A DNA stretch of 63,078 bases from the NCBI GenBank assembly GCA_964492555.1, contig CAZBKQ010000005.1, positions 8,503-71,580 on the forward strand. Reading direction: 5' to 3'. This DNA is from an uncultured Rhodospirillaceae bacterium (GTDB lineage: Bacteria; Pseudomonadota; Alphaproteobacteria; MPNO01; UBA2964). Numbering within the stretch: the first letter of the stretch is position 1; each line of letters starts with the position of its first letter. Position numbers and translations under genes: made by a program. Positions 1,357 through 60,693 of the stretch are shown piece after piece. The notes beneath the pieces were generated by a model that did not search any database, was not told the DNA's origin, and saw nothing but the letters and a program-made list of their open reading frames with translations.

Positions 1357-2886
1357 ATGGATAACGGTTCCGAGGGTTTCGATGCCGAATATGATGTGGT
1401 GGTGGTCGGGTTCGGCTTTGCCGGCGGCGTCTCGGCGATTGAGGCGCATGACGCCGGCGCGAAGGTGCTGGTGGTCGAAAAGATGCCCGATCCCGGTGGT
1501 ATCTCCATCTGTTCGCATGGCGCGATCTGTTCCACCCGCAATCCCGACGGGGCCTTTACCTATCTGAAGGCGACCAATGGCGGGCGCACCAATGACGCGG
1601 TTCTGCGCGCGCTGGCCGATGGGATGCAGGATAACGAGGCCCATGCCCGCAAGCTGGCCGAACTGACCGGCGGCGAATTCATGATCCGCGAACGCGGCGG
1701 CAATTACCCCTGGCCGGGCGAGGACAGTTTCTATTACACCCAGCTGGTCGATATCCCGAATTTCGATGCCTCACAGGTCTATCCGCAGGTAAAGGGCCGC
1801 CCCGGCGGGCCGATGGTGTTTTACATGCTGCAGCGCAATGTCGAGGATCGCGGCATTGATGTCTGGCTGAATTCACCGGCCAAGGACCTGATCACCGGCG
1901 CGGACAAGGAGGTCATCGGTCTGGTGGTGGAAACGCAGGACGGCATCAAGCGCGTCCGGGCGAAGAAGGGCGTCATCCTCGCCTCCGGCGGGTTCGAGAA
2001 TAACGAGGACATGAAAAAGCAGTTCTGGCAGATCATGCCGGTGACCACCGCGGCCAATGGCGGCAATACCGGTGACGGCATCCGCATGGCGCAGTCGCTC
2101 GGCGCCGATCTCTGGCATATGTGGCATTTCCACGGTTCCTACGGCTTCCTCCACCCGGACCGGGAAAAATATCCCTACGGCATCCGCGTCAAACGTTTTC
2201 CGGACTGGATCCCCGGCAAGGAAGTCCGCGCCGTGGTGCAGGCGCCCTGGATCATGCTGGATCAGGACGGCAAGCGTTTCATGAATGAATTCCCGCCTTA
2301 TGTGCAGGATACCGGCTGGCGCGATCTGGAGCATTACGACCCGGTGCGGCAATGTTTCCCGCGTATTCCGGCGCTGCTGATCTATGACGAGCTGGGCCGC
2401 CGGCGCTTCCCCATGGGCAACCCCGCCTATAACGAACGCGGCATGGATTATGTCTGGAGCCAGGACAATCTGAAGGAGATCGAGGAAGGCGTCATCAAGA
2501 AGGCCGATACGGTGGGTGAGCTGGCCGAGGCGTTCGGCTTCGACGGCGAGGCGGCGGAAGAATCGATGGCGCGCTGGAACGAGCTCTGCGCCACGAGGAA
2601 CGATACCGATTTCGGCCGCCCCGCCGGCACGATGATGAAAATCCAGCGTCCGCCTTACTATGGCGGTCTGGTCTGGCCGGTTCTGTCCAATACCCAGGGC
2701 GGGCCTGTCCATGATGAAAAGCAACGCATCATCGATGTGGAGGGCAAGCCGATCCCGCGCCTGTTCGCGGCGGGGGAGATGGGAAGCTCCTTCGGCTATC
2801 TCTATCTCGCCGGCGGCAATATCGCCGAATGTTTCGTGACCGGGCGCATCGCGGGGAAAGAGGCGGCGACACTGTCGAACGGCTGA
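1357..2886 (+). CDS. FAD-dependent oxidoreductase (FAD_binding_2 type; fumarate reductase / 3-ketosteroid dehydrogenase-like flavoprotein)
   Basis: 509 aa. Dinucleotide-binding motif DVVVVGFGFAGG at the N-terminus. C-terminal LFAAGEMG...GGNIAECFVTGRIAG is typical of this flavoprotein class. RBS GAAGGA precedes the ATG. Confidence 0.8.
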   Translation: MDNGSEGFDAEYDVVVVGFGFAGGVSAIEAHDAGAKVLVVEKMPDPGGISICSHGAICSTRNPDGAFTYLKATNGGRTNDAVLRALADGMQDNEAHARKLAELTGGEFMIRERGGNYPWPGEDSFYYTQLVDIPNFDASQVYPQVKGRPGGPMVFYMLQRNVEDRGIDVWLNSPAKDLITGADKEVIGLVVETQDGIKRVRAKKGVILASGGFENNEDMKKQFWQIMPVTTAANGGNTGDGIRMAQSLGADLWHMWHFHGSYGFLHPDREKYPYGIRVKRFPDWIPGKEVRAVVQAPWIMLDQDGKRFMNEFPPYVQDTGWRDLEHYDPVRQCFPRIPALLIYDELGRRRFPMGNPAYNERGMDYVWSQDNLKEIEEGVIKKADTVGELAEAFGFDGEAAEESMARWNELCATRNDTDFGRPAGTMMKIQRPPYYGGLVWPVLSNTQGGPVHDEKQRIIDVEGKPIPRLFAAGEMGSSFGYLYLAGGNIAECFVTGRIAGKEAATLSNG

Positions 2887-2976
2887 TACCCGCCGGGATT
2901 GCTCCATGTTAAGGCGGCGCGCATTGCGTGCCCGCTAATCTCTGCCCACGGGATTGCAAACACATGGAGAGTAGAA

Positions 2977-3456
2977 GTGTCCGACGCGGAAATGCGCGAA
3001 GTCGTCACCATCGACGGCAAGAACATCACCATCAAATCATCCGCAAAGCCGGTCGAAAATAACGGGCTTTCTGACGAAGGCGATGCGCTGCTGCGGGTCA
3101 ATGCCTTCGATCCCGCGCTGAAACCGGAGAATTATTCCAAGGCCGATGGCGCGCCGCTGCGCCTGTTTGACGCGACCGGGGTAAAGGTCGATGTGTCAAA
3201 GCGCAGCAAGGAGGATATGGGTTTCTGGCACCGCAATGTGGACGCGCATGAGATCATCTTCTGCGTGCGCGGCGCGCTCGGGTGGGAGACCGAACTCGGC
3301 ACCGTCACCCTGCATGAGGGAGAGATGATCCTGATCCCGCGCGGCATCACCCACCGGTCCTTCCTGGTCGATGAATCGGCGGAGGAAAACATCCTGCTGG
3401 AGCTGAAAATTTCCGGTGAGATCACCTATACCGGCCCCGACAGCGTGACGGGGTAG
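2977..3456 (+). CDS. Cupin-domain protein
   Basis: Cupin motifs FWHRNVDAHEIIFCVRGALG and GEMILIPRGITHRS. The track ORF starts at 2899, but the in-frame GTG at 2977 follows a GGAGAG RBS (2966-2971) and clears the upstream gene. Confidence 0.7.
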   Translation: MSDAEMREVVTIDGKNITIKSSAKPVENNGLSDEGDALLRVNAFDPALKPENYSKADGAPLRLFDATGVKVDVSKRSKEDMGFWHRNVDAHEIIFCVRGALGWETELGTVTLHEGEMILIPRGITHRSFLVDESAEENILLELKISGEITYTGPDSVTG

Positions 3457-3511
3457 GGGGGGCGATACGTCCCCTCCCGTTGCCAGTTTTTTCGCTTCCC
3501 TGTAGGTTCCG

Positions 3512-3560: not shown

Positions 3561-5207
3561 ATGGCGGAAGACAGGGGATATCCCGATTTTCAGGATCATC
3601 TGAAAACGCTGGAGGAGCGCGGGCTTCTGCAGACAATTTCCGAACCGGTCAACAAGGACACGGAAATGCATCCGCTGGTGCGCTGGCAGTTCCGGGGCGG
3701 CATCCCGGAACCGGACCGCAAGGCGTTCCTGTTCAACAACATCACCTGCTCGCGCGGCAAGGACTATCAGCTTCCCGTCGCGGTGGGCGCGTTGTCATCC
3801 AACCGCGAGATCTATTCCATCGGCATCGGCGCGCCGGTCGAGGAAATCGGCAAGGTGTGGTCGCACGCCATCGCCAACCCTGTGAAACCGCGCGAGGTCA
3901 CCGACGCGCCCTGCCAGGAAATGATTATCGAGGGCGGCGATCTGGAAGGCGAGGGCAAGGGGCTCGACTGGCTGCCCATTCCGATTTCCACGCCCGGCTT
4001 CGATTGCGCGCCCTATTTCACCGCGACCGGCTGTATCAGCAAGGACCCCGATACCGGCGTCCAGAACATGGGCACCTATCGCGCCGGGCTGAAATCCTCC
4101 ACCCGGATGGCGGTCCGCATGTCGGCGCGGTCCGGCGGGGCGGAAGGGCATCAGCACTGGAAGAAATACCGCGAACGCGGCGAGAAAATGCCGATGGCGA
4201 TCATTCTCGGCGGCCCGCCGGCGTTATGTTACTGCGCGCCGCAAAAGCTGCGCATGGGCGTTGATGAAATGGCGGTCGCGGGTGGTCTGGTCGGCGGGCC
4301 GATCAATGTGGTGAAGGGCCATACGGTCGATCTCATGATCCCGGCGGAGGCCGAGGTGGTGGTCGAGGGCTTCGTCGATCCCGACTATCTGGAGCCCGAG
4401 GCGCCGTTCGGCGAAAGCCACGGCCATATCGCGCTGGAGGATTACAACAACATTATGGAGATCACCGCGATCACCTATCGCAAGAACGCGGTGCTGGCCT
4501 CCATCATCAGCCAGGTGACGCCGTCTGAATCGAGCGTCATCAAGCGCGTCGCCTACGAACCCATCTGGCACGATCACCTGACCAACGGGCTCGGCATCAA
4601 GGGGTTGAAGCGGGTCTCCATGCATGAGCCGCTGACCAATATCCGCCGCGTGCTGTTCCTGGTGTTCGACCGGGGCGTGCCGACGACCGAAATCTGGCGC
4701 GCGCTCTATGGCGCCTCCACCGTCAACGCGGCGGTCGGCAAATATATCATCGCGGTGAATGAGGATATCGACCCCGATAATGGCGATGCGGTGTTCTGGG
4801 CGCTGGCCTATCGTTCGAACCCGGCGCTGGATGTGCAGATATTGCCCCATCGCGACAAGGGGCACGGGCCGAAAAGCGATATGCGTATGGGGCGCGAGGA
4901 CGCGACCATGCTGATTGATGCGACGCTGAAGTCCGACATGCCGCCGATTGCCTTGCCAAAGCGCGAATATATGGAAGCCGCGAAGGAGCTCTGGGAAAAG
5001 CTCGGCCTGCCGCCCTTGAAGCCGGAAAGCCCGTGGCATGGCTATTCGCTGGGCGACTGGAACAAGGAATGGGATGCCATGGCAAAACGCGCGGCCGATG
5101 GCGATTACATGGAAAATGGCCGCCGGTCGGCGCAATACCGCCGGTCCGATGTCGCGCCCAATACATCCGTCCGCGATGTGCCCGGCGGTCCGTTCGGGGA
5201 TGACTGA
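3561..5207 (+). CDS. UbiD-family (prenylated-FMN dependent) decarboxylase, long form (paralog 1)
   Basis: 548 aa. N-terminus INKDTEMHPLVRWQFRGG and metal/prFMN-region motif EPEAPFGESHGH. The C-terminal extension ...LPKREYME...PWHGYSLGDW... is shared with paralogs at 5871 and 22795. Confidence 0.88.
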   Translation: MAEDRGYPDFQDHLKTLEERGLLQTISEPVNKDTEMHPLVRWQFRGGIPEPDRKAFLFNNITCSRGKDYQLPVAVGALSSNREIYSIGIGAPVEEIGKVWSHAIANPVKPREVTDAPCQEMIIEGGDLEGEGKGLDWLPIPISTPGFDCAPYFTATGCISKDPDTGVQNMGTYRAGLKSSTRMAVRMSARSGGAEGHQHWKKYRERGEKMPMAIILGGPPALCYCAPQKLRMGVDEMAVAGGLVGGPINVVKGHTVDLMIPAEAEVVVEGFVDPDYLEPEAPFGESHGHIALEDYNNIMEITAITYRKNAVLASIISQVTPSESSVIKRVAYEPIWHDHLTNGLGIKGLKRVSMHEPLTNIRRVLFLVFDRGVPTTEIWRALYGASTVNAAVGKYIIAVNEDIDPDNGDAVFWALAYRSNPALDVQILPHRDKGHGPKSDMRMGREDATMLIDATLKSDMPPIALPKREYMEAAKELWEKLGLPPLKPESPWHGYSLGDWNKEWDAMAKRAADGDYMENGRRSAQYRRSDVAPNTSVRDVPGGPFGDD

Positions 5208-5210: not shown

Positions 5211-5753
5211 ATGAGCCAGAGCCGGGAGGACTGGCTGGAGGCCGCCTGGTCGATGCTGGGCGAGGGCGGCGTCGAGGCGGTGCGGGTTGAAAAGCTCGCC
5301 GACAAGATGGGCGTCACCAAGGGCAGCTTCTACTGGCATTTCAAGAACCGGCGCGATCTGATCGACGGGTTGCTGGAACGCTGGTTCTCGATGCGCGAGG
5401 AGTTGCAGCCCGAATTCATGAAAACCTATCCGGAGCCGGAGGAACGTCTGTGGAAGGTGCTGGAACGGCTGATTACCAAGCGAAGCTCCAGCGGCCAGCC
5501 GACCGCGATCCGCCTGTGGGCGCAGAACCATCCCGAGGTCGGGGCGAAGATCGATGCGGCGGACGATCTGCGGCGGCAGATTTTTGTCGAGCAGTTCCGC
5601 GCGCTGGGTTTCGATGACGGCGAGGCCGAAGTACGCGCCGATCTTTATATGACGGCGATCAGCGCGGAGTTTCTTTATTGCGGCCGGTTGAATGAATCCG
5701 ACCGGCTGGCCAAGGCGCGGGAAAAGCACGACGTATTGGTGAAACGGGGCTGA
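5211..5753 (+). CDS. TetR/AcrR-family transcriptional regulator
   Basis: 180 aa. N-terminal HTH VRVEKLADKMGVTKGSFYWHFKNRRDL. The gene starts 4 nt after the UbiD-1 stop and sits between two UbiD paralogs. Confidence 0.88.
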   Translation: MSQSREDWLEAAWSMLGEGGVEAVRVEKLADKMGVTKGSFYWHFKNRRDLIDGLLERWFSMREELQPEFMKTYPEPEERLWKVLERLITKRSSSGQPTAIRLWAQNHPEVGAKIDAADDLRRQIFVEQFRALGFDDGEAEVRADLYMTAISAEFLYCGRLNESDRLAKAREKHDVLVKRG

Positions 5754-5870: not shown

Positions 5871-7616
5871 ATGGCGAAGAGCATTCGGGAACAAACCTTT
5901 GAAGATCGCGGTTATTACGACCTGCATGAACATATCGAGCGTCTGCGCGAAGCGGATTTGCTGTTCGAGGTCGATCGCGAGATCAACAAGGACACCGAAA
6001 TGCACCCGCTGGTGCGCTGGCAGTATCGCGGCGGGGTCGAGGAAGAAGACCGCAAGGCGTGGCTGTTCAATGATGTCACCGATTCCAAGGGCCGCAAATA
6101 CGATATCCCGGTGCTCGTCGGCGGGCTGGCGGCCAACCAGGCGGTGTACAAGCTCGGCATGGGCTGCGAGCTTGATCAGATCAAGGAAACCTGGATCAAG
6201 GCGCTTAACAATCCGATCGACCCGAACGAAGTACCGTTCGACGACGCGCCCTGCCACGATCTGGTCTATACCGGCGAGGATCTGCTGAATGGCTTCGGTG
6301 TCGATCAGATTCCGGTGCCGATTTCCTCGCCCGGCTGGGACAACGCGCCCTATTTCGCGGCCTCGCACTTCATTACCAAGGACCCCGAAACCGGCATCCA
6401 GAACATGGGCAATTACCGCGCCATGGTGAAAGCGCCGAACCGGGTGGGTTTCAACCCCTCGATCGAGCTGCGCACCGGCGGTTACATGCATTGGGAAGAG
6501 TGGAAGAAACGCGGCGAGCCGATGCCCTGCTGCATCGTGGTCGGCGCCCCGCCGGTTGTTTCCTTCACCGCCGTGCAGAAGGTTCCGGAAAAATACGACG
6601 AATTCCAGATTTCGGGCGGTCTCTGCGGCAAGCCGCTCAACGTCGTGAAGGCAAAAACCGTCGATATCATGGTCCCGGCCGAAGCCGAGCTGGTGATCGA
6701 GGGCTATATCTCCACCGATCTGCTGGAGCCGGAAGCGCCGTTCGGCGAATCCCACGGCCATGTGAATTTGCAGGAATATAACGGCTTCATGGATGTGACC
6801 GCGGTCACCCGCCGCAAGGACGCAGTGATGGTGTCCTGGGTCAGTCAGGTGACGCCGTCCGAATCGTCGGCGATCAAACGCCCGGCTTATGAGGCCGCCC
6901 AGATCGAGCATCTGCGCGATCATCTCGGCATCAAGGGCATCAAGCATGTCTGCACCCATGAACCGCTGACCAGCCTGCACAAGCTGATCATCGCCGTCGT
7001 CGACCGCGACATGCCGCGCACCGAAATCTGGCGCACGCTCTACGGTATTGCGTCCCTGCGCCGGGCCGAGGGTAAATGGGTCATCGCGGTGAATGAGGAT
7101 ATCGATCCGGATGATACGGATGCCGTGTTCTGGGCGATGTCGTACCGCTGTAAACCGCATCGCGATGTCGAAATCCTGAAGAACAAGGATGAAGGCCATG
7201 GGCCGCGTTCGCTGGAAGACAGCAACGATTCCGCTGTTCTGGTTGATGCGACGCTCAAGGAAACCTTTCCGCCGGTCTCCCTGCCGAAGCGCGAATATAT
7301 GGAACGCGCCGCGGTGATCTGGGATGAGCTCGGCCTGCAGAAGCTGCGGCCGAAACGTCCCTGGTACGGCTATGACATGGGCGAATGGAACGAAGACCTC
7401 GAAACCATGGCGCGCCGCGCGGTTGCCGGTGATTACTGGCAGACGGGTGAGGTGATCGCCCAGCGCCGCCGGTCCGATGTCAAGATGAACACCGAGGTCC
7501 GGACGCTTGGCGAAGGCACGCCGGGCGCCGGCGACCGGTCGAAAGATGCAGGAGAACTCACATGGGACGGTTTGAGGGACGCGTCGCACTCGTTACGGGT
7601 GCCGCCCAAGGAATAG
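5871..7616 (+). CDS. UbiD-family decarboxylase, long form (paralog 2), with an extra C-terminal tail of about 30 aa
   Basis: 581 aa. Collinear with the 3561 and 22795 proteins (INKDTEMHPLVRWQYRGG, EPEAPFGESHGHVNLQEYNG). RBS GAGGAA. The 3' end overlaps the next gene by 55 nt. Confidence 0.88.
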   Translation: MAKSIREQTFEDRGYYDLHEHIERLREADLLFEVDREINKDTEMHPLVRWQYRGGVEEEDRKAWLFNDVTDSKGRKYDIPVLVGGLAANQAVYKLGMGCELDQIKETWIKALNNPIDPNEVPFDDAPCHDLVYTGEDLLNGFGVDQIPVPISSPGWDNAPYFAASHFITKDPETGIQNMGNYRAMVKAPNRVGFNPSIELRTGGYMHWEEWKKRGEPMPCCIVVGAPPVVSFTAVQKVPEKYDEFQISGGLCGKPLNVVKAKTVDIMVPAEAELVIEGYISTDLLEPEAPFGESHGHVNLQEYNGFMDVTAVTRRKDAVMVSWVSQVTPSESSAIKRPAYEAAQIEHLRDHLGIKGIKHVCTHEPLTSLHKLIIAVVDRDMPRTEIWRTLYGIASLRRAEGKWVIAVNEDIDPDDTDAVFWAMSYRCKPHRDVEILKNKDEGHGPRSLEDSNDSAVLVDATLKETFPPVSLPKREYMERAAVIWDELGLQKLRPKRPWYGYDMGEWNEDLETMARRAVAGDYWQTGEVIAQRRRSDVKMNTEVRTLGEGTPGAGDRSKDAGELTWDGLRDASHSLRVPPKE

Positions 7617-9232: not shown

Positions 9233-9239
9233 GGAGGGA

Positions 9240-53897: not shown

Positions 53898-54851
53898 ATG
53901 AGGAAAACATTCATTTTTTCGGCGGTCGGAACGGCCATGTTGGCGACCGCGTCGCTGCCCGCGAGTGCGGCAAATTTCGCCTGTTCGACGGCGCAGCTGA
54001 TTGTGCCTTGGGGACCGGGTGGCGGTACCGCCGTCTTGTTTGGTCTGTTTGAGAAATACATGAACGAACATGGTGCCAAACCGAAAATCAAGGTGGTCAC
54101 CATCCCCGGACAGGGGGGCAACAAGGGCGCCAAGGTCGCGGTCAAGAAGAAAGCCGATGGCTGCAGCCTGTTCGCGATCCATCAGAGCGCGATTATTTCG
54201 CATCTGGCGAAGCGCGTCGATTTCAATTACACGGCATTCGACACTGTCGCGCATCTGACCGTGACGCCCAGCATTCTCTCAGCTAGCCCGAAAGCACCGT
54301 TCAGCGACTATGACGGCATGCTGAAGCATGTGAAGGCCAATAACGGCAAGGTAAAGGTCGGTGCCTCGCTCGGCGCGACCAGCCATTTCATCTGGCTCAT
54401 CATCGGGGAGAAGACCGGCACGTCATACAGTTTTGTCCCGGTTCAGGGTGGCACCGGCAAGCGCAAGCAGCTCCTGATGAACAATACCTTCATGCTGGCC
54501 GAAATGAACGAGGCGGCGGCGAAAAAGGAACTTTCCGATGGGCGGATGAAGCCTTTGGCGATTGCCGCGGCCAAACGGTCGCCGACGTTCCCGAATGTGC
54601 CCACGCTGCGTGAAAAAGGCATCGACCTGCTTTATGCGCTTAATCGCGGCATCGTCGTGCCGAAGGGCACAGCCAAGGACAAGATCGATCACTGGGCGGC
54701 CGCTTTCAAAAAGGCCGTTGATGATCCCGCGTTCGTGAAGCAGATCGCGGCAAAGGGCACCGGCCTGCAATATATGGGGCCGAAAAAATACGAGAACTGG
54801 TTCAAGGCCCAGACCGCGTTGTTCACCAAGGTCCACGCCAGCATCAAGTAA
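53898..54851 (+). CDS. tctC: TTT transporter substrate-binding protein
   Basis: 317 aa. Signal peptide MRKTFIFSAVGTAMLATASLPASA. Bug/TctC-like motifs LIVPWGPGGGTA and GGTGKR. It is followed directly by tctB and tctA. Confidence 0.82.
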   Translation: MRKTFIFSAVGTAMLATASLPASAANFACSTAQLIVPWGPGGGTAVLFGLFEKYMNEHGAKPKIKVVTIPGQGGNKGAKVAVKKKADGCSLFAIHQSAIISHLAKRVDFNYTAFDTVAHLTVTPSILSASPKAPFSDYDGMLKHVKANNGKVKVGASLGATSHFIWLIIGEKTGTSYSFVPVQGGTGKRKQLLMNNTFMLAEMNEAAAKKELSDGRMKPLAIAAAKRSPTFPNVPTLREKGIDLLYALNRGIVVPKGTAKDKIDHWAAAFKKAVDDPAFVKQIAAKGTGLQYMGPKKYENWFKAQTALFTKVHASIK

Positions 54852-54916
54852 GGCGTTCCGGATAAGGCGGGGCCCGCGAATTTGTGCGGGTTCCGCCCCG
54901 GCCTTTTTCCACCGCC

Positions 54917-55510
54917 ATGCAGCGCCTCAACCGCGATACCATTGTCGCCATCATCCTTTTGGCGCTGTGCGGCGTTTTCTTTTATGTCAGCTTCGATATC
55001 CGCACGCCGGAGTTCGAGCGTCTCGCGCCCGGTCAGATGGATCCCGGGTTGTGGCCGCGCATTATCCTGTCGGGCCTTGTCCTGATGGCGCTGATCTATC
55101 TTGCGCAATCGGTGATATCGCCGCCCGCGGACCAGGAAGAACGTGGTGGGCTGGGCGGCTGGTACCGGCATTACCGCAATCCCATCCATTGTTTTCTTGC
55201 GTTCGGCGCCTTCATGCTGCTTATCCCCTATCTCGGGATGCTGCTAGCGGGGATGCTGTTTGTTTTCGGCATGATGACCATGCTGGGGGGCAGGGAACGG
55301 TGGCTGATCGGGACCCATGCCACGGTCTCGGTCTGCACGGTGGGCGGGATGTGGTTCATCTTTGCCTGTTTGCTGAGCGTGCAATTGCCGCGCAGCAGCC
55401 TGTTTCCGGATGCGGAGGAATGGCTGCTGGTAAATATCTGCGGTATTTCCGAGGCAATCGGCGGGCTTTTCGCCGCCGCGCCGCGCGCCTGTGCCGTAAT
55501 CTTGGTCTGA
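54917..55510 (+). CDS. tctB: TTT transporter small membrane subunit
   Basis: 197 aa from the ATG at 54917. Four hydrophobic segments, and the position between tctC and tctA fits. Confidence 0.75.
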   Translation: MQRLNRDTIVAIILLALCGVFFYVSFDIRTPEFERLAPGQMDPGLWPRIILSGLVLMALIYLAQSVISPPADQEERGGLGGWYRHYRNPIHCFLAFGAFMLLIPYLGMLLAGMLFVFGMMTMLGGRERWLIGTHATVSVCTVGGMWFIFACLLSVQLPRSSLFPDAEEWLLVNICGISEAIGGLFAAAPRACAVILV

Positions 55511-55522
55511 GGGGCGGGCGCA

Positions 55523-57214
55523 ATGATCGAAAATATTCTTATCGCCGGAGCGGAGCTTTGGTCCGTCGGGACGTTGTTGCTGATGGCTCTTGGCGTGGTT
55601 GCCGGTCTGATCGCGGGCGCCATTCCGGGGTTTACCATCGCCATGGCGGTGGTGCTGGTTCTGCCCTTTACCTTCGGGATGAGCCCTGTGCAGGGGCTGG
55701 GCACCATGATCGGTGTCTATGTCGGCGGTCTGTCGGGCGGGTTGATGTCGGGCATTCTCACCGGCATCCCGGGGACGCCTTCATCGGTTGCCACCACATT
55801 TGACGGTTTTCCGCTGGCGCGCGGCGGCAAGGCCGGGCTGGCGCTTGGCGTCGGCGTCTGGGCGTCTTTTTTCGGCGGTGTGATCGGCGCCATTGTCCTT
55901 GTCCTTGTCGCGCCGCAGCTCGCTCGCATCGGGCAGGAATTCCAGCCATGGGATTATTTCGCGCTGATGGCGTTTGCGCTCACCGTGACGGCGTCTCTGG
56001 CGGGGGAAAATATGGTCAAGGGGCTGATTGCCGGGCTGATCGGTTTGCTGGTCGCGACGGTGGGCGAGGACTCGGTGGTCGGCGTGCCGCGTTTTACCTT
56101 TGGAGTGGATTCAGTTCAGCAGGGATTCGCTTTCCTGCCGGTTCTGGTCGGGCTGTTTGCCTTCTCACGTCTATTGGCCGACGTTCGGGATTCCGAATCC
56201 GCAAAGGGGAACCTCGGCGCGAAATCGGATGCCTCCATCCGGATCAATCATCTTGTGGCCGCGACGGAGGTTCTGAAACGCTGGGGCAATCTGGTGCGCT
56301 CTTCCCTTATCGGCGTCTTTACCGGGGTTTTGCCGGCGGCGGGCAGTTCGATCTCCAATATTCTCGCTTACGATCAGGCCAGGAAATATTCAAAGACGCC
56401 AGAGAAATTCGGGACCGGCCATTTAGACGGTATTGTTGCGCCGGAAGCCGCCAACAACGCGACGGCTGGCGGGGCGCTGATCGTCATGATGGCGCTGGGC
56501 ATTCCCGGCGATATCATTACCGCTGTGATGCTGGGCGCGTTACTGATCCATGATGTGGTGCCGAGCCCGACCTTTATCACCGAACAGCCGGTTATCGCCT
56601 ATGCGATTTTTATTGCCTTCTTCATGGCGAATTTCATGATGCTGGCCTTGCAATCCGTGACGTTGCGGGGATTCGTCCGGGTCACCCAGGTCAAGATATA
56701 TATGCTGGCTTCGGTCATCCTGTTTTACTGCGCGCTTGGCGTCTTCGCGCTCAATAATGTGGAATTTGATATCTGGACGCTCTTCTGGTTCGGCGTGCTT
56801 GGCTTTGTCATGTCCGCGCTGGGTTTTCCCATCGTGCCGGTTATTCTCGGCGTCGTGCTGGGCGGTATCGCCGAGAACGCGCTGGCGCAGGTTATCGCGC
56901 TGTCCGATGACCCGACCCATTTCGTGACCCGGCCCTGGTCGCTGTTCTTTATCGTGCTGGGGTTGTTCTCGTCCTTTTTCCATGTCTATCAGCGTCAGCG
57001 CGGCAGGAAGCGCTGGACGTTGGTCTTTATTCCGGCGATGTGTATCTGCCTTTCCGTTCCGGTTGCCATGATGGACGGGATTGTGCGGCCTGTTCTTGCC
57101 GCGCTGTTGGTTGTTGGCGGATTGTATTTGCTCTATCAACGCCACCGTGAGGGGTGGGTGGTCATGACAGAAGATCAGGGCGAGGCACCAACGATCGCGG
57201 AGGGAGGACCATGA
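55523..57214 (+). CDS. tctA: TTT transporter large permease subunit
   Basis: 563 aa polytopic membrane protein. Motifs GAIPGFTIAMAVVLVLPFTFGM and GVLPAAGSSISNILAYD are typical of TctA. Confidence 0.88.
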   Translation: MIENILIAGAELWSVGTLLLMALGVVAGLIAGAIPGFTIAMAVVLVLPFTFGMSPVQGLGTMIGVYVGGLSGGLMSGILTGIPGTPSSVATTFDGFPLARGGKAGLALGVGVWASFFGGVIGAIVLVLVAPQLARIGQEFQPWDYFALMAFALTVTASLAGENMVKGLIAGLIGLLVATVGEDSVVGVPRFTFGVDSVQQGFAFLPVLVGLFAFSRLLADVRDSESAKGNLGAKSDASIRINHLVAATEVLKRWGNLVRSSLIGVFTGVLPAAGSSISNILAYDQARKYSKTPEKFGTGHLDGIVAPEAANNATAGGALIVMMALGIPGDIITAVMLGALLIHDVVPSPTFITEQPVIAYAIFIAFFMANFMMLALQSVTLRGFVRVTQVKIYMLASVILFYCALGVFALNNVEFDIWTLFWFGVLGFVMSALGFPIVPVILGVVLGGIAENALAQVIALSDDPTHFVTRPWSLFFIVLGLFSSFFHVYQRQRGRKRWTLVFIPAMCICLSVPVAMMDGIVRPVLAALLVVGGLYLLYQRHREGWVVMTEDQGEAPTIAEGGP

Positions 57215-58035
57215 CGACACAAGCTGAAAAGGCGGAGAAGTTTCAGGCGCTGCACAGATCGGACGATATTCTCGTCCTGCCCAACGCCTATGACGCGGTG
57301 AGCGCCTGTGTGATCGCGGCGGAAGGGTTCGAGGCGATTGCGACGACCAGCGGCGGCTGCGCCTTTTCTGTCGGCTATTGCGACGGTGAAAACATGACGC
57401 GCGATCAGATGGCGGAAATTGTCGGGCGCATCTGCAACGCCGTCGATATCCCGGTCAGCGCCGATATGGAAGCGGGCTACGGCAAGGAGCCGGGGGCTGT
57501 TGCCGCCACCATCGCGGCGACGATTGAATCAGGCGCGGTCGGGATCAATATCGAGGATGGCAGCAAGGGGGGCGAACGGGTCCTGATCGACTTTGATCTC
57601 TCCGTCGAGCGTATTCGCGCCGCGCGCAAGGCGATTGATGATAGCGGTATCCCGATGGTGCTGAATGCCCGGACCGACGCCTTCATGACCGGCGAAGACG
57701 ACCCGGTGGCGGAGGCGACCCGCCGCGCTAACGCGTATCTGGAGTCCGGGGCGGACTGTACCTTTGTCATCGGGGTTTCCGATGCGGGCAGGATCGGGCA
57801 ATTGGCCAATGGCATTGATGGACCGTTGAACGTGCTGGCGGGGGCGTCGAGCCCGTCGATCGCGGAGCTTAAGGCGCTTGGTGTTAAACGCGTAACCTTC
57901 GGCAGCGGCTTCGCCAAGGCGGCGATGACCCTGGTGCAAAAGGGCGCGCGGGAATTGAAGGAAACCGGCACCTATGGCTGGGTCGAGGGGGCCATGGGCC
58001 AGCCTGATATTCATCGGATTTTGAAGGGCGGCTAG
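57211..58035 (+). CDS. Isocitrate lyase / PEP mutase superfamily protein (2-methylisocitrate lyase / oxaloacetate decarboxylase-like)
   Basis: 274 aa from the ATG at 57211, which forms an ATGA overlap with the tctA stop. Motifs LVLPNAYDAVSA, VSADMEAGYG and GINIEDG. Confidence 0.8.
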   Translation: MTTQAEKAEKFQALHRSDDILVLPNAYDAVSACVIAAEGFEAIATTSGGCAFSVGYCDGENMTRDQMAEIVGRICNAVDIPVSADMEAGYGKEPGAVAATIAATIESGAVGINIEDGSKGGERVLIDFDLSVERIRAARKAIDDSGIPMVLNARTDAFMTGEDDPVAEATRRANAYLESGADCTFVIGVSDAGRIGQLANGIDGPLNVLAGASSPSIAELKALGVKRVTFGSGFAKAAMTLVQKGARELKETGTYGWVEGAMGQPDIHRILKGG

Positions 58036-59708
58036 CCCTTTGCCGCTCTCCTCAGTCCCGTAATCGTTGCCCTTGGCGATATCTGGTCCTGATCGATCCT
58101 GACCTCGATCAGGGCCGGGCCGCCGCTCGCGCGGCAGCGCTCAAACGCCGGGGCGAAATCGTCCGTCGCCTCGACCAGTTCACCATGCAGCCCGTAGGCC
58201 TTCGCCAGCGCGCAAAAATCGGGATTGACCAGGTCGGTGCCGCTGACCCGGGTCGGGTAGAACCGTTCCTGATGCATGCGGATGGTGCCATAGGTGCCGT
58301 TATTCACAACCACGAAGGTGATCGGCAGGTCGTATTGCCGCGCGGTGGCAATTTCCTGCCCGCACATCAGGAAATCCCCGTCGCCGGAGAATGAGACCAC
58401 GATGCGGTCCGGATGCGCGACCTGTGCCGCGACGGCGGACGGCACGCCATATCCCATTGAGCCGCTTTGCGGAGCAAGCTGGGTCGGGTAATCGCGATAA
58501 CAGTAAAAGCGATGCACCCAGTTGCTGAAATTACCCGCCCCGTTTGTGACGATGGCGTCGTCGGGCAGGGTCTCGCCCAGCCACTGCACGATGAGTCCCA
58601 GATCGACAGGGCCTTTCATGTCGGGCGGGGAAATGTTTGCCTTATGATCCGCGTTGGCGGCCGCGGTCCAGTCGCTCCAGCCGGGCGCGCCATCGGGTGC
58701 AAGATCGCTGACGGCCGCGGCAAAATTATCCATCCCGGAATTAATGCCGAGATCGGGCTGATAAACCCGCGCGACTTCGTCCAGCCCGGCGGTGACATGG
58801 ACAAAATTCTGATGAGGGCAGGGGAGCGTGAACAACTCATATCCCCCGGTGATGATTTCCGACATCTGCGCGCCGAGGACGAATAGCAGATCAGCCTCAT
58901 CGACTCGTTTGGCCAGTGCCGGATTGACGCCGAGCCCGAAGTCGCCCGCATAGTTGGGATGGCGGTTATCGATCAGATCCTGCCGGCGGAACGCGGCGGC
59001 GACGGGCAGGTTCCAGGCTTCATAGAATTTTCTGATTTGGCGGAGCCCTTCCGCGTTCCAGCCCGAGCCGCCCAAAATCATCATCGGCTTCTTTGCCGCC
59101 GACAGCATTTCCTTTAACCGCGTTATAGAGGCCGGGTCGGGGGCGGGGTTGATGGTCTGGTACGGTTTCGCGTCATCCGCCGCCGCCTGTTGCTTCTGCA
59201 TGTCTTCTGGCAGGGCCAGCACCACCGGACCGGGCCGTCCGGAGGTCGCGACATGAAAGGCGCGGGCGACCATTTCCGGTATCCGGGCGGGGTCGTTGAT
59301 CTGCGCCACCCATTTGCACAGGGGCGCGTACATCTGGCGGAAATCGACCTCCTGAAACGCCTCGCGCTGCATCATGGCGCGACCGACCTGGCCGATAAAC
59401 AGGATAACCGGCGAAGAATCCTGATGCGCGGTGTGAATGCCGAGGCTGGCATTGGTCGCGCCCGGCCCGCGTGTCACAAAACAGATGCCGGGCTTGCCGG
59501 TGATCTTGCCATAGGCATCGCCCATATAGGTGACGCCGCCTTCCTGCCGGCAGACGATCAGCTTCAGGGCGTCGCGCACATCGTAAAGCGCATCGAGCGT
59601 TGCAAGGTAGGATTCGCCCGGCACGCAAAAGGCGGTATCGACGCCATGAATGCGGAGCTGGTCGACGAGGATTTGCGCGCCGGTGCGCAGGTTGGAACTT
59701 TCGGTCAT
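58032..59708 (-). CDS. ThDP-dependent enzyme T7 (classical acetolactate synthase large-subunit-like subtype)
   Basis: 558 aa. Motifs VPGESYLATLDAL, CRQEGGVTYMGDAYG, RGPGATNA and SGDGDF...VVNNGTYG. Confidence 0.85.
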   Translation of the reverse strand: MTESSNLRTGAQILVDQLRIHGVDTAFCVPGESYLATLDALYDVRDALKLIVCRQEGGVTYMGDAYGKITGKPGICFVTRGPGATNASLGIHTAHQDSSPVILFIGQVGRAMMQREAFQEVDFRQMYAPLCKWVAQINDPARIPEMVARAFHVATSGRPGPVVLALPEDMQKQQAAADDAKPYQTINPAPDPASITRLKEMLSAAKKPMMILGGSGWNAEGLRQIRKFYEAWNLPVAAAFRRQDLIDNRHPNYAGDFGLGVNPALAKRVDEADLLFVLGAQMSEIITGGYELFTLPCPHQNFVHVTAGLDEVARVYQPDLGINSGMDNFAAAVSDLAPDGAPGWSDWTAAANADHKANISPPDMKGPVDLGLIVQWLGETLPDDAIVTNGAGNFSNWVHRFYCYRDYPTQLAPQSGSMGYGVPSAVAAQVAHPDRIVVSFSGDGDFLMCGQEIATARQYDLPITFVVVNNGTYGTIRMHQERFYPTRVSGTDLVNPDFCALAKAYGLHGELVEATDDFAPAFERCRASGGPALIEVRIDQDQISPRATITGLRRAAKG

Positions 59709-60370
59709 ATCGTTATGAACTCATCCGCGAATATGGTGTAGCGCTGTAATTTGGGCTTCTCGGCGTCTTCGGGTTTCACATAGGAAATCGAACTTTTGCC
59801 CTTGAGGGCGCGGGGCAGGATCATGACCCGGGAGAAATAGCCGACCCTGTCTTTCGGTGCATAGGCCAGAACCGGATCGGGCCCTGTTTCGAACCAGGGC
59901 TCACCCGGAGAAATTTCGGTCTTGTGGCCCTGTGTCTCGACCGTGAAACCGCCTTCCAGCAGACAGCGCGTGCCCGGTCCCTGATGGGTATGGGTATAGG
60001 CGATGCCGCCCGGTGGAATATCGACCCGGTCGCAGCGCATCAGATAGCCGTCACCGGGTTCCAGCTCGACCGCCGCGTCATGCAGCGGCATCGTGGAGAT
60101 GTTGTCGCCATTGAGCATGGTGCGTGTCGCCTGAGGCTCGACAAGTTCATAGCGCAAAATTTCCACCCCGTCGGGCGAGGCGAAAATTTCCGTCTCTTCC
60201 GCGCTGAAAAAGGCGGAGTTGGCGGAAAGGGTGGCGGCGACGCCGCCGGAGACCGCCCGCGCCATGCCGGATTTTACATAAAGAACGCGATTGGCGGCGG
60301 GCAGCGGTGCGGTGGTCGAGGCGCGCGCGCCTAACCGGTCATTGAATAATCTCAGGGAATAAAAGGCCAT
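59705..60370 (-). CDS. Cupin-domain protein
   Basis: 221 aa from the ATG at 60370 (the track ORF 60469 would overlap the NIPSNAP gene). Motifs PPGGIAYTHTHQGPG and ISPGEPWFE. Its TGA overlaps the ATG of T7 (ATGA). Confidence 0.7.
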   Translation of the reverse strand: MAFYSLRLFNDRLGARASTTAPLPAANRVLYVKSGMARAVSGGVAATLSANSAFFSAEETEIFASPDGVEILRYELVEPQATRTMLNGDNISTMPLHDAAVELEPGDGYLMRCDRVDIPPGGIAYTHTHQGPGTRCLLEGGFTVETQGHKTEISPGEPWFETGPDPVLAYAPKDRVGYFSRVMILPRALKGKSSISYVKPEDAEKPKLQRYTIFADEFITI

Positions 60371-60378
60371 CGGATTTC

Positions 60379-60693
60379 TTACGGGTTGGGCGACCAGGGG
60401 GCGGGAATCAGTGTCTTGTTTTCCTGACGCAGGAGCAGCGGGCGGATTTTCGGCTGAAACGCCTTCCATGCCGGATCGGCGTAAAGCTGTGCGCGGCGCC
60501 TGTCGCGTTCCTCATACGAATCATAGGCCCACATATGGACGATCTGGTTTTGCGGCCCGAAATCGGTGAAATACCAGCCGATCATCTTGCCCAGGATGGG
60601 TTCCTGCGCGGCGCGGCCTTCTTCTTCGTAAAGTTTCATATATTCCGGCACCTTGCCGGGGTGCAGCGTGTAAATCCGTTCTTCGACGATCAT
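60379..60693 (-). CDS. NIPSNAP-family protein
   Basis: 104 aa. MIVEERIYTLHPGKVPEYMKLYEE...VHMWAYDSYEERDRRR is typical of the dimeric alpha+beta barrel NIPSNAP fold. Confidence 0.78.
   Translation of the reverse strand: MIVEERIYTLHPGKVPEYMKLYEEEGRAAQEPILGKMIGWYFTDFGPQNQIVHMWAYDSYEERDRRRAQLYADPAWKAFQPKIRPLLLRQENKTLIPAPWSPNP

Follow-up and report, generated by a model that had tools for sequence, protein, structure and literature searches.

A chromosomal, multi-operon, probably catabolic gene cluster with several families of oxygenases, dehydrogenases and non-oxidative decarboxylases in an uncultured marine alphaproteobacterium

UbiD enzymes are reversible and some of them use non-aromatic substrates; the ThDP superfamily also takes in lyases, carboligases and hydrolases. 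The closest solved relatives of the UbiD proteins considered here act on heteroaromatic acids, namely HmfF for UbiD1, UbiD2 and UbiD4 and PhdA/HudA for UbiD3, and benzoylformate decarboxylase is the closest among solved structures for ThDP1 and ThDP3 to ThDP6. The amidohydrolase-related dinuclear oxygenases (AROs) carry the signature motifs D-x-H and D-x-P-H-x-D (PMC13154177) and have a Rieske ferredoxin encoded beside them (PMC10811679); a characterized ARO, SfbO, is a sulfonate monooxygenase (PMC10811679, PMC13154177). Genes of all these kinds occur in the window analyzed here, a stretch of 63,078 nucleotides. We find it to be a chromosomal, non-mobile, multi-operon cluster of an uncultured marine alphaproteobacterium, classed by NCBI under Rhodospirillaceae/Rhodospirillales, and our results support an unusual wealth of oxygenases, dehydrogenases and non-oxidative decarboxylases (UbiD, ThDP, PhtD-like) in this region. 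The original prediction for this DNA knew of no described pathway with such a composition, and we found none in the literature either.

Gene content and conservation of the region

A Pfam scan of all 56-57 ORFs reproduced the family counts first proposed: four UbiD genes (starts 3561, 5871, 15374 and 22795), seven ThDP genes (25986 on the minus strand, 28976, about 31929, 33760, and 37214, 39150 and 58032 on the minus strand), three Amidohydro_2 genes (47983, 49963 and 51291), one AMDase-family gene (17640), two MmgE/PrpD genes (52531 and 60824) and two PEP_mutase/ICL genes (57211 and 62326). The same scan gave six TauD, two LLM, three FMN_dh and three SDR genes, and a single gene each for FAD enzyme, Mo large subunit and small Rieske protein; the region further holds two small VOC and two cupin genes. 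The transport genes comprise TctC/TctB/TctA and an orphan TctC, a TTT solute-binding protein (157..1191, -; PF03401), and the regulators one TetR and one LysR, in agreement with the claim of a sole, TTT-type uptake system and only two regulators. Equally in line with prediction, Pfam detected no AMP-binding/CoA-transferase or beta-oxidation genes among the 56-57 ORFs, the window yielded no transposase, integrase, tRNA or Rfam feature, and GC content is flat at ~0.60. UbiX was found neither in the window nor in the loci of marine relatives, and no flavin reductase for the LLMs or ferredoxin reductase for the AROs was found. PrpB alone reached equivalog-level assignment to a characterized enzyme, and every statement on substrates below is therefore an inference.

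The host lineage is widespread among seawater MAGs. About 20 species of marine MAGs labeled 'Rhodospirillaceae' share a syntenic UbiD/TauD/SDR/VOC core; together with the MTase, it occurs in 20 species-level MAGs, at means per locus of 2.6 UbiD, 4.1 TauD and 2.9 SDR. Paralogues within the window are 46-79% identical, their orthologues in other species 74-93%; the duplications are thus old, and the earlier description of the families as 'co-amplified' is misleading. The clustering is not chance: paralogues form proximal arrays, and 20 species-level genomes share the core in synteny. The entire supercluster is intact in the closest relatives only (~88-92% identity). In relatives at ~77% identity, the ThDP5/6 pair lies in an unrelated neighborhood and the UbiD-bearing module A is unlinked from module B, which holds most ThDP genes; no functional link between A and B is therefore required. 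Synteny was confirmed for the core, but not for the block as one unit. Several relatives' loci carry inserted TctC/TctA, and LLM, AMDase-like, PhtD-like, TTT, DUF3891, DLH and extra Amidohydro_2 genes have been gained or lost.

These differences in gene content, the age of the paralogues, the location of module B genes elsewhere in other genomes and an unrelated prp operon directly adjoining would all fit a piling up of unrelated catabolic operons in a flexible chromosomal region, the common theme being a side effect of some old duplications, few in number and local. However, gene order in the module A core is kept across 20 species, and genomes far apart in phylogeny share its combinations of families with the window. 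Among cultured bacteria, rhizobial chromids show linkage of UbiD1-type, Mo subunit, ThDP3/4-type and TTT genes. Rhizobial chromids or Tara contigs carry the sub-modules UbiD+Mo+ThDP+TTT, ThDP+FMN-dehydrogenase+Mo and ARO+Rieske+ThDP, and distant genomes also share the fuller sets ThDP+FMN_dh+Mo+VOC+cupin and ARO+Rieske+TctC+ThDP. We consider an accumulation of unrelated operons unlikely.

The explanation we favor, to which we give an even chance, is a vertically inherited catabolic supercluster in which at least four or five modules, each transcribed on its own, share one CoA-free chemical logic. Free (non-CoA) organic acids would enter via TTT transporters, and (hetero)aromatic and 2-hydroxy/2-oxo acids would be hydroxylated, dehydrogenated and then decarboxylated. 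TauD-type 2-oxoglutarate dioxygenases, LLM flavin monooxygenases and AROs with their Rieske ferredoxin would perform the O2-dependent hydroxylation; SDRs, FMN-dependent 2-hydroxy-acid dehydrogenases, the FAD desaturase-type enzyme and the Mo hydroxylase/aldehyde oxidoreductase the dehydrogenation; and prFMN-dependent UbiD, PhtD/OphC-type and ThDP enzymes the non-oxidative decarboxylation. Direct observations cover the identity of families and subfamilies, the catalytic motifs, synteny and the recurrence of sub-modules; we infer the order of reactions, their direction (decarboxylation, not carboxylation) and the substrate classes.

UbiD, TauD and PhtD-like genes of module A

Module A (1.4-24.4 kb) opens with a FAD_binding_2 flavoprotein of the flavocytochrome c/KstD/TcuA-like desaturase type (1357..2886, +; Pfam, with sub-threshold NCBIfam matches only) and a small cupin (2977..3456, +; weak Cupin_2/HgmA_N matches). 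Its TetR regulator (5211..5753, +; Pfam) is encoded between two long-type UbiD genes, UbiD1 (3561..5207, +; Pfam UbiD N/core/C) and UbiD2 (5871..7616, +; Pfam, PDB match and motifs), the latter 88-91% conserved between species. The PhdA/HudA-like UbiD3 (15374..16867, +; Pfam) and long-type UbiD4 (22795..24444, +; Pfam, PDB match and motifs) follow downstream. All four keep the catalytic motifs N-x-G-x-Y-R and E-x-P-F-G-E/D, which read NMGTYR and EAPFGESHG in UbiD1 (top PDB match HmfF, 6h6x) and NLGAYR and EGPFGD in UbiD3 (top PDB match PhdA, 7pda, 323 bits).

Between the UbiD genes lie 2-oxoglutarate/Fe dioxygenases, TauD1 and TauD2 (8381..10091, +; Pfam, HxD motif), which score 205-208 bits against the taurine dioxygenase model, under its 313-bit cut-off, TauD3 and TauD4 (13086..14802, +; Pfam, motif) and the divergent TauD5 (20430..21272, -). 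LLM flavin monooxygenases (Pfam) are encoded at 10099..11214 (+; LLM1, sub-threshold SfnG/NtaA-like matches) and 11217..12311 (-; LLM2), and SDRs at 7562..8320 (+; SDR1, Pfam), 16869..17630 (+; SDR2, Pfam and gene call) and 21943..22701 (+; SDR3). A UbiE/COQ5-like SAM methyltransferase (12321..12968, -; Pfam), a GNAT acetyltransferase (21294..21872, +; Pfam) and VOC1, a single-domain glyoxalase/dioxygenase fold (14831..15259, +; Pfam) found in 19 of 20 relatives, complete this group.

The AMDase/maleate-isomerase family protein (17640..18404, +; Pfam) keeps both catalytic cysteines, C82 and C192, when aligned to AMDase and maleate isomerase; this isomerase/racemase dyad speaks against an AMDase-type decarboxylase. 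The next gene (18525..19409, +) encodes a Pfam-less, predicted two-domain VOC-fold protein of 294 aa, whose likeness to PcpA-type dioxygenases makes it a candidate hydroquinone-type ring-cleaving dioxygenase and casts doubt on the claim that ring-cleavage genes are lacking. The PhtD/OphC-like gene (19417..20412, +) has no Pfam or NCBIfam assignment; its single proposed assignment nevertheless stands, since the product is homologous over its full length to 4,5-dihydroxyphthalate decarboxylase (9JP7, E 1.9e-58). It is also 36.5% identical to the decarboxylase of a Phaeobacter phthalate-type cluster. Module A most likely decarboxylates hydroxylated aromatic or heteroaromatic acids; the VOC-fold protein may later cleave the ring and the two-cysteine isomerase may carry out cis-trans isomerization.

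The combination of UbiD with a UbiE-like methyltransferase and several hydroxylases also resembles ubiquinone-type tailoring, and one may imagine a biosynthetic (secondary-metabolite or quinone-like) cluster in which these enzymes and the GNAT protein tailor an aromatic product. This is hardly credible: Pfam revealed no PKS, NRPS, prenyltransferase or terpene synthase among the window ORFs, importers accompany TetR/LysR regulators, TTT genes are inserted in relatives, and paralogue arrays are typical of catabolism.

ThDP enzymes and FMN-dependent dehydrogenases of module B

Module B (24.5-46.6 kb) contains a LysR regulator (27926..28831, -), preceded by a 96-aa hypothetical protein (24545..24835, -), kept in relatives and matching no Pfam family, an ornithine cyclodeaminase/mu-crystallin (OCD) family protein (24865..25974, -) and ThDP1 (25986..27848, -). 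Beyond it lie ThDP2 (28976..30811, +), FMNdh1 of the alpha-hydroxy-acid dehydrogenase/oxidase family (30820..31926, +), the 58% identical ThDP3 and ThDP4 (31929..35550, +), VOC2 (35833..36261, +), a 221-aa hypothetical protein matching no family (36496..37161, -) and the 60% identical ThDP5 and ThDP6 (37214..40925, -; variant motif PDGD..NN). A xanthine-dehydrogenase-family Mo large subunit (41092..43428, +), with no FeS/FAD partner genes nearby, an alpha/beta hydrolase (43430..44335, +) and FMNdh2 and FMNdh3 (44363..46589, -) end the module.

The catalytic Glu and the Mg/ThDP motif are kept in all seven ThDP enzymes of the window. Two of them exceed NCBIfam cut-offs, solely of uncharacterized models: ThDP2 (PRK08327, 641 bits versus 456) and, near the 3' end, ThDP7 (58032..59708, -; PRK08199, 850 bits versus 539). 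ThDP and FMN_dh genes are adjacent twice within the window. The ThDP5/ThDP6 pair is kept in L052, L055 and a contig of an 88% relative, and FMNdh2/FMNdh3 orthologues adjoin ThDP5/6-type genes in L052 and L053; orthologues of ThDP5/6 and FMNdh2 type occur together in an 88% relative and in 77% relatives, and also on a Tara contig with a MoCo orthologue. The linkage was not seen in Pusillimonas or rhizobial contexts. Module B most likely represents several parallel mandelate-type, MdlB/MdlC-like pairs, in which FMN_dh would oxidize a 2-hydroxy acid to a 2-oxo acid, the ThDP enzyme would convert this to an aldehyde and CO2, and the Mo enzyme would oxidize the aldehyde to an acid one carbon shorter.

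Amidohydrolase-related oxygenases, TTT importer and 3' end

Module C (46.6-58 kb) starts with the long, divergent TauD6 (46580..47899, +) and ARO-1 (47983..49191, +; DTH and DYPHWD motifs; PDB profile matches 8sm7/8sm6/AibH), followed by a 123-aa Rieske ferredoxin (49304..49675, +; CPH...CPWH), a small conserved ORF (49662..50012, +) 34% identical to its Phaeobacter counterpart, and the 79% identical ARO-2 and ARO-3 (49963..52520, +); the real ARO-2 start is probably near 50020. All three amidohydrolase-2 proteins carry D-x-H and D-x-P-H-x-D, the Rieske gene adjoins, and the trio's scores reach 150 bits with solved AROs but 39-45 bits with LigW, gamma-RSD and ACMSD. Motifs, scores and neighbor speak against the ACMSD/LigW/gamma-RSD-type decarboxylases first proposed and consistently point, at the sequence level, to an ARO set with its ferredoxin. 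The Rieske+ARO pair is also found in Phaeobacter and Sinorhizobium. Downstream lie PrpD1, an IDS-epimerase/IRG1-like MmgE/PrpD-family protein (52531..53826, +), the TctC-TctB-TctA tripartite tricarboxylate transporter (53898..57214, +) and PEP-mutase 1, a PEP-mutase/ICL superfamily protein without the K(R)xCGH lyase loop (57211..58035, +). Module C would combine a set of ARO/Rieske hydroxylases with a dedicated TTT importer.

The characterized SfbO acts on sulfonates, and organosulfonate or aminopolycarboxylate/opine-type metabolism might be envisaged, with TauD, SfnG/NtaA-like LLM and SfbO-like ARO enzymes cutting C-S or C-N bonds adjacent to an anionic group and Xsc-like ThDP enzymes. The closest relative of PrpD1 is iminodisuccinate epimerase, an OCD-family gene is present, and top NCBIfam matches include taurine dioxygenase, ScoE, SfnG and NtaA/DmoA. 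All these NCBIfam matches, however, fall far under family cut-offs, the window has no sulfite exporter, sulfite dehydrogenase or sulfonate ABC transporter, and four UbiD genes and the PhtD-like gene are left unexplained; we hold this very improbable.

At the 3' end, prpD and prpB (60824..63078, +; prpB truncated by the window end) are followed directly beyond the window by prpC. PrpD2 scores 856 bits, just below the 950 cut-off. This prpDBC is an ordinary methylcitrate operon outside the decarboxylase set, which rules out PrpD2 and ICL2 as members of the proposed island; at 60824 and 62326, both also start beyond its stated limits (1357-60693).

Overall, 12 of the 20 or so claimed decarboxylase-family genes are plausible decarboxylases (four UbiD, one PhtD-like, seven ThDP). 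Six are reassigned to non-decarboxylating subfamilies (the amidohydrolase-2 trio, the 'AMDase' gene, PrpD2 and ICL2, the truncated PrpB), and PrpD1 and PEP-mutase 1 belong to neither group. Three mechanisms are supported, not six. A single decarboxylase island stripping carboxyls from polycarboxylated alicyclic or aromatic substrates (CRAM-like DOM, naphthenic acids) could still draw on 12 plausible decarboxylases within 60 kb, a sole importer of tricarboxylate type, the lack of CoA genes in the window, a lineage widespread in seawater MAGs, and weak, sub-threshold matches of the FAD enzyme and SDR1 to the cyclohexanecarboxylate aromatization enzymes ChcC1/ChcC2/ChcB1. Yet half of its mechanisms are lost at subfamily level, its modules separate in ~77%-identity relatives, ring-cleavage candidates exist, and there are two separate regulators and many divergent transcription units. 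We judge it improbable. Between module C and the methylcitrate operon, cupin and NIPSNAP proteins are encoded beside ThDP7 (59705..60693, -).

Gene content and boundaries of the cluster

The window is a chromosomal cluster of catabolic genes in which paralogues form arrays; it is divided here into module A (1.4-24.4 kb, with a TetR regulator), module B (24.5-46.6 kb, with a LysR regulator) and module C (46.6-58 kb). Frame-specific GC analysis gives 56 to 57 genes. The original prediction had described a 'decarboxylase island', and Pfam scans of every ORF reproduced its family inventory almost exactly: four UbiD, seven ThDP, three Amidohydro_2, one AMDase-family, two MmgE/PrpD and two PEP-mutase/ICL proteins, together with six TauD, two LLM, three FMN_dh and three SDR proteins. 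Single copies are found of an FAD_binding_2 enzyme, a Mo large subunit, a small Rieske protein, TetR and LysR, and the transporter genes are TctCBA and an orphan TctC. Missing from the earlier list were a methyltransferase, a GNAT protein, an OCD-family protein, an alpha/beta-hydrolase, a NIPSNAP protein, two small VOC proteins, two cupins and four hypotheticals. The reported absence of CoA ligase/transferase, beta-oxidation, transposase and integrase domains holds for Pfam matches across all window ORFs. No flavin reductase or ferredoxin reductase gene is encoded in the window. NCBIfam scans covered 40 window proteins: only PrpB and two uncharacterised ThDP families scored above cut-off, so that no substrate could be read from equivalog naming, and no enzyme of modules A to C had an equivalog-level match.

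The observation is largely real; its headline of six decarboxylase mechanisms is overstated. Twelve of the 20 genes counted encode plausible decarboxylases and six are reassigned; the other two are PrpD1 (52531) and PEP-mutase 1 (57211). PrpD1 scores 120 bits to IDS epimerase, 113 to the B. subtilis IRG1-like protein, 54-59 to CAD and 30 to PrpD. PEP-mutase 1 scores 44 bits to the oxaloacetate decarboxylase PA4872, against 136-177 bits for uncharacterised structural-genomics proteins, and lacks the lyase Cys loop. A Pfam-level 'decarboxylase-capable' label is misleading for the amidohydrolase-2, AMDase-family, MmgE/PrpD and ICL/PEPM proteins. The second members of the last two families, PrpD2 (60824) and ICL2 (62326, cut by the window end), do not belong to a decarboxylase set: they are prpD and prpB of an ordinary methylcitrate operon. 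The truncated PrpB reaches 375 bits, above the 354-bit cut-off, and carries the KRCGH loop, PrpD2 reaches 856 bits on the PrpD model, slightly below its 950-bit cut-off, and a citrate-synthase-family gene lies directly past the window, 3' of prpD-prpB. As nothing about prpDBC is unusual, these genes should be removed from the 'island'.

On the 193-kb source contig, the analysis took in roughly 10 kb of sequence beyond the window on the 3' side and roughly 1 kb on the 5' side. On the 3' side (L043, 9667-18193), prpD-prpB are followed by the citrate-synthase-family gene (prpC), a hydrolase-like gene, EamA, a second NIPSNAP gene, alanine dehydrogenase and Zn-ADH genes, then a nitroreductase, an AMP-binding CoA ligase and hydantoinase B. 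The presence of the ligase means that CoA chemistry starts directly outside the 'island'. On the 5' side, about 1.1 kb upstream of position 1 and beyond the orphan TctC, at least three independent assemblies (L046-L048) stop within about 0.5 kb of each other, in a zone where only small membrane-protein ORFs are visible. These assembly ends may mark a repeat or a strain-variable boundary. The block itself appears non-mobile, as had been proposed: it has no integrase or transposase Pfam matches and no tRNA, its G+C stays within 0.55-0.62, and it shows synteny in 20 species. Searches for tRNA genes and Rfam families found none in the window.

The conserved UbiD-TauD-SDR core and its companions

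Many metagenome contigs, from ENA assemblies ERZ273130xx/ERZ273131xx and JGI metagenomes 3300017968, 3300018423, 3300020168, 3300020189 and 3300023173, encode exact matches of window proteins. The nearest species-representative genomes are uncultured marine MAGs labelled Rhodospirillaceae, Rhodospirillales or Alphaproteobacteria at NCBI. UbiD3 (paralogues are numbered in gene order) is 90-92% identical in two species-representative genomes and 74-80% in about 18 more, one of these genomes being a closed 4.15-Mb chromosome, OX638326.1. Comparison of window proteins with 20 species-level loci by tblastn reveals a core of conserved gene order: UbiD2, SDR, TauD, TauD, LLM, methyltransferase, TauD, TauD and VOC, continuing with UbiD3, one or more SDR genes, TauD5, SDR3 and UbiD4. 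The 20 loci hold on average 2.6 UbiD, 4.1 TauD and 2.9 SDR genes. TctC/TctA genes are inserted in several of them, and the PhtD-like, VOC-fold and isomerase genes are confined to the nearest relatives.

The junction to module B, formed by a 96-aa hypothetical protein (24545-24835), the OCD-family gene (24865-25974) and ThDP1, is preserved in several relatives. A relative at 88% identity retains module B with gains and losses, in the order TauD, three FMN_dh, hydrolase, Mo subunit, ThDP6, ThDP5, two more ThDP, FMN_dh and ThDP2. More distant genomes, at about 77% identity, have the ThDP6-ThDP5 pair next to glutamate synthase and an FMNdh2 orthologue about 6 kb away. Since linkage between modules is lost there, the supercluster as a whole is lineage-specific, with conservation at the level of the modules. 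The ordered core is syntenic in 20 species; the block as a whole is not a single unit but a composite that takes in the ordinary prp operon. The paralogues within the window are 46-79% identical, a level below that of orthologues in other species (typically 74-93%), which indicates old duplications and rules out a recent amplification.

All four UbiD proteins combine PF20695, PF01977 and PF20696, the three-domain UbiD architecture, and keep the N-x-G-x-Y-R and E-x-P-F-G-E/D motifs. We take the motif residues to be the metal/prFMN-binding Asn and the catalytic Arg-Glu-Glu(Asp), equivalent to Fdc1 N168/R173/E277/E282. None of the four approaches the equivalog cut-offs of the NCBIfam UbiD, VdcC, PPC, MqnL-type or BagN models, and only UbiD3 passes the generic TIGR00148. 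The closest solved relative of UbiD3 is the phenazine-1-carboxylate decarboxylase PhdA, followed by HudA. UbiD1, UbiD2 and UbiD4 (3561-5207, 5871-7616 and 22795-24444), which are 52-59% identical to one another, make up a subfamily of long proteins (548-581 aa); the furandicarboxylate decarboxylase HmfF (6H6X, 177 bits) is their closest solved relative. They share a conserved extension of about 100-140 residues past the Pfam UbiD_C match. Between species, UbiD2 keeps 88-91% identity, whereas its neighbour genes reach only 55-80%.

In the furfural/HMF pathway of Cupriavidus basilensis, HmfF and HmfG are UbiD and UbiX proteins and HmfABC a Mo dehydrogenase. The window resembles this system in that HmfF is the best solved match of the three long UbiD proteins and that their rhizobial homologues adjoin UbiX and XDH-family Mo subunits. 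However, the match reaches 177 bits only, the window proteins are 100-140 residues longer, and the window lacks UbiX, furoyl-CoA ligase and enoyl-CoA hydratase. A tblastn search with a rhizobial UbiX query found no UbiX in the window or in the marine relatives' loci (L007-L026); a UbiX may be encoded at another site in the genome.

The 'PhtD-like' call in module A is correct: the protein matches the 4,5-dihydroxyphthalate decarboxylase 9JP7 over its full length (residues 2-323 of 331, E 1.9e-58), a relationship that neither Pfam nor NCBIfam could name. Pfam detects no phthalate dioxygenase, reductase or cis-diol dehydrogenase beside the gene or elsewhere in the window. This differs from the Phaeobacter plasmid cluster, where a PhtD/OphC homologue has phthalate oxygenase, reductase and dehydrogenase neighbours. 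On Phaeobacter inhibens pP92_a (L057, 3534-9333), a phthalate-type Rieske oxygenase, a VanB reductase and a Gfo/Idh/MocA dehydrogenase lie together with an 'ABC transporter substrate-binding protein' that is 36.5% identical to the window PhtD-like protein; given this identity, it is probably a mis-annotated OphC-type decarboxylase. A like-named 'ABC substrate-binding protein' in the rhizobial UbiD cluster was considered as a further PhtD-like homologue and shows no detectable relatedness.

The AMDase-family gene had also been counted as a decarboxylase, a role that its residues argue against. AMDase has one catalytic cysteine, Cys188, and Gly74 where racemases carry their second; maleate isomerase and Asp/Glu-racemase-type enzymes have a cysteine pair. 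Cys82 aligns with Gly74 of AMDase and Cys76 of maleate isomerase, and Cys192 with Cys188 of AMDase and Cys194 of maleate isomerase; both catalytic cysteines are thus present, as in the isomerase/racemase configuration. The Ser76 and Tyr126 positions of the dioxyanion hole (Thr75/Ser76/Tyr126) are not conserved, and the protein scores 71 bits on the NCBIfam AMDase model against a cut-off of 225.

Between the genes for this two-Cys isomerase and the PhtD-like decarboxylase, a 294-aa hypothetical protein (18525-19409, +) matches nothing in Pfam, NCBIfam or PDB by sequence yet has more than 7000 homologues. It is predicted by AF2 (pLDDT 87.6) to consist of two VOC-fold domains, and a fold search places the model closest to 1ZSW, 3OAJ and the hydroquinone dioxygenase PcpA (TM 0.54-0.58). 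His21, His204 and Glu254 are invariant, which makes the protein a candidate for ring cleavage; it may represent an unrecognised family of ring-cleaving dioxygenases. The neighbourhood of one homologue holds hydantoinase genes and no decarboxylases, so it lends no support to a fixed partnership with PhtD. Nicotinate (nic) pathways combine a Mo hydroxylase, a decarboxylating step, a ring-cleaving dioxygenase, an alpha/beta-hydrolase and a maleate isomerase. The window likewise encodes a Mo hydroxylase large subunit, a neighbouring alpha/beta-hydrolase, a two-Cys protein of the maleate isomerase family and this candidate ring-cleaving VOC protein; unlike in the nic pathways, the genes are spread over several operons, and the likeness is one of protein families.

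The ThDP/FMN_dh/Mo and ARO/Rieske modules

All seven ThDP proteins contain PYR, central and PP domains and a ThDP/Mg motif. The catalytic Glu is found in an HE context in six; ThDP7 has no match to the simple 'HE' pattern and its Glu was not located there. ThDP2 belongs to NCBIfam family PRK08327 and ThDP7 to PRK08199, both uncharacterised. ThDP1 and ThDP3-6 are distantly PRK08327-like: their nearest structures are benzoylformate decarboxylase (about 130 bits) and 2-hydroxyacyl-CoA lyase, and they score 100-145 bits on the BFDC model, whose cut-off is 493. The seven are plausible 2-oxo-acid decarboxylases, in a superfamily that also holds lyases, carboligases and hydrolases. ThDP5 and ThDP6 (37214-40925, -) carry P-D-G-D...NN in place of the canonical G-D-G...NN form [GDG-x(24-30)-NN] of the ThDP/Mg motif. 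The XDH-family Mo large subunit (41092-43428, +) has no adjacent FeS or FAD subunit, either here or in the 88%-identity relative.

The mandelate pathway of Pseudomonas putida uses the FMN-dependent (S)-mandelate dehydrogenase MdlB, the ThDP-dependent benzoylformate decarboxylase MdlC and the aldehyde dehydrogenase MdlD. Similarly, the window FMN_dh genes adjoin ThDP genes whose nearest structure is benzoylformate decarboxylase, the chemistry would be CoA-free, and a candidate aldehyde oxidiser, the Mo enzyme, is close by. In contrast to the Mdl module, the window has no mandelate racemase, a Mo enzyme instead of an NAD aldehyde dehydrogenase, and, where Mdl has a single copy of each, three FMN_dh paralogues and six or seven for ThDP. 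Module B may be pictured as parallel pairs of MdlB/MdlC type that would convert 2-hydroxy acids to 2-oxo acids and these to aldehydes and CO2, with the Mo enzyme as a possible oxidiser of the aldehydes.

In module C, the three amidohydrolase-2 proteins had been assigned to decarboxylases of the LigW/ACMSD/gamma-RSD type. This assignment fails: they score 39-45 bits to such decarboxylases, against 97-150 bits to solved amidohydrolase-related dinuclear oxygenases (AROs; 8SM6-9, AibH), and 56 bits to PtmU3. ARO signature motifs are D-x-H and D-x-P-H-x-D, the former missing from amidohydrolase-2 decarboxylases (PMC13154177), and a small (<250 aa) Rieske ferredoxin within three genes has served as a genomic criterion for ARO discovery (PMC10811679). 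In ARO-1, ARO-2 and ARO-3, as we name the window proteins, the N-terminal motif reads DTH44, DCH67 and DSH43, within an aligned invariant column, and the C-terminal D-x-P-H-x-D/E motif is DYPHWD in all three. A 123-aa Rieske ferredoxin (CPH...CPWH) is encoded between ARO-1 and ARO-2. On this evidence, we assign the trio to the AROs.

The window AROs share both signature motifs and an adjacent Rieske ferredoxin with AibH1H2/AibG, SfbO/SfbR and PtmU3 (PMC7782822, PMC10811679, PMC13154177), and solved AROs are their nearest structures. Unlike the two-subunit AibH1H2, the window has three paralogues, all keeping the metal motifs; unlike these systems, it has an extra small conserved ORF and no reductase gene nearby. 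This ORF (about 49662-50012, +) lies between the Rieske ferredoxin and ARO-2. It is 34% identical to, and shares a C-terminal VFELGMWQ motif with, a 99-aa hypothetical protein that Phaeobacter inhibens plasmids encode at the equivalent place. Its position upstream of ARO-2 suggests that ARO-2 probably starts near 50020. Phaeobacter plasmids and one Sinorhizobium chromid likewise carry a small conserved ORF between the genes of a Rieske and ARO pair, and ARO/Rieske systems may thus have this ORF as a third conserved component. The window G+C is about 60% (range 0.55-0.62), and its sole compositional break, a dip to about 0.55 at 48-52 kb (48000-52000; about 0.60 elsewhere), lies over the ARO/Rieske genes. 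This segment is possibly a later acquisition.

Proposed chemistry and recurrence in other lineages

Taken together, the window may comprise several modules for free acids imported by TTT systems, with a common logic of hydroxylation, dehydrogenation and decarboxylation. In module A, hydroxylases and SDRs would be combined with UbiD and PhtD-type decarboxylases; aromatic or heteroaromatic acids are the substrates of the closest characterised relatives of these decarboxylases. Should the modules work in this way, they supply candidate genes for the CoA-free breakdown of carboxylated aromatic, heteroaromatic and 2-hydroxy acids in abundant uncultured marine bacteria.

A much broader hypothesis, which we consider improbable, is that this widespread marine Alphaproteobacteria lineage holds a conserved CoA-independent hydroxylate-oxidise-decarboxylate toolkit that would strip carboxyl or one-carbon units from carboxyl-rich DOM. 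Diverged paralogues of long-type UbiD, TauD, SDR, ARO, ThDP/FMN_dh and TTT genes would act collectively on heterogeneous carboxyl-rich (hetero)aromatic or alicyclic DOM; if true, this would provide a genetically defined route for the turnover of CRAM-like refractory carbon. The CRAM or polycarboxylate substrates suggested in the original prediction are rated as equally improbable. The nearest concept is that of SAR202, in which paralogue expansions of oxidative enzymes have been proposed to serve recalcitrant DOM oxidation (PMC6946804). Both cases involve an uncultured marine lineage with multiple diverged oxygenase paralogues and refractory carboxyl-rich molecules as hypothesised substrates. 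However, SAR202 belongs to another phylum, its enzymes are flavin-dependent monooxygenases rather than TauD, ARO, UbiD and ThDP proteins, and the window paralogues are physically clustered and syntenic. A role in sulfonate scavenging carries low weight: no sulfite-handling genes are found, and every match is sub-threshold.

As the original prediction suggested, the literature searched describes no pathway of this composition. Searches for UbiD with TauD/TfdA, UbiD with UbiX, Mo and pyridine dicarboxylates, CRAM with decarboxylase and Rhodospirillales, and UbiD with MAG and TTT returned nothing relevant. By sequence, the individual parts are already known as members or distant relatives of UbiD/HmfF/PhdA, BFDC-like ThDP enzymes, OphC/PhtD, ARO and PrpDBC. 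The remaining interest lies in uncharacterised parts: the UbiD-TauD-SDR core, which is conserved, and two kinds of module that recur, ThDP/FMN_dh/Mo and ARO/Rieske/ThDP. The analysis also flags large uncharacterised subfamilies, namely long-type UbiD, PRK08327-like ThDP, the triple ARO with Rieske and the VOC-fold family of more than 7000 members, whose homologues in culturable rhizobia and roseobacters are genetically testable.

Similar family combinations recur in distant lineages, which argues that these families work together rather than being adjacent at random. A Tara contig carries orthologues of ThDP6 (66%), FMNdh2 (54%) and the MoCo protein (44%) with cupins, VOC, CoxM/CoxS, an FAD_binding_2 enzyme and a TRAP transporter. 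Sinorhizobium mexicanum (L058, NZ_CP041241.1, 13210-19958) has a 7-kb stretch that holds genes for a Rieske ferredoxin, an ARO, TctC and a ThDP5/6-type enzyme (57%), and this proximity suggests a functional tie between AROs and that ThDP subfamily. On rhizobial chromids, two XDH-family Mo subunits (40-46%) flank a UbiD1-type gene (55%), and UbiX, TctC, a ThDP3/4-type gene (44-46%) and TctA come next; this arrangement offers a tractable model for the window UbiD1-type, Mo and ThDP3/4-type genes. This conserved, unannotated chromid cluster is seen in Neorhizobium petrolearium (L050, NZ_CP123001.1) and S. meliloti LMB1 pA (L051); its first Mo subunit is accompanied by CoxG, FeS and FAD subunits, and a GntR gene lies between the second Mo subunit and UbiX.
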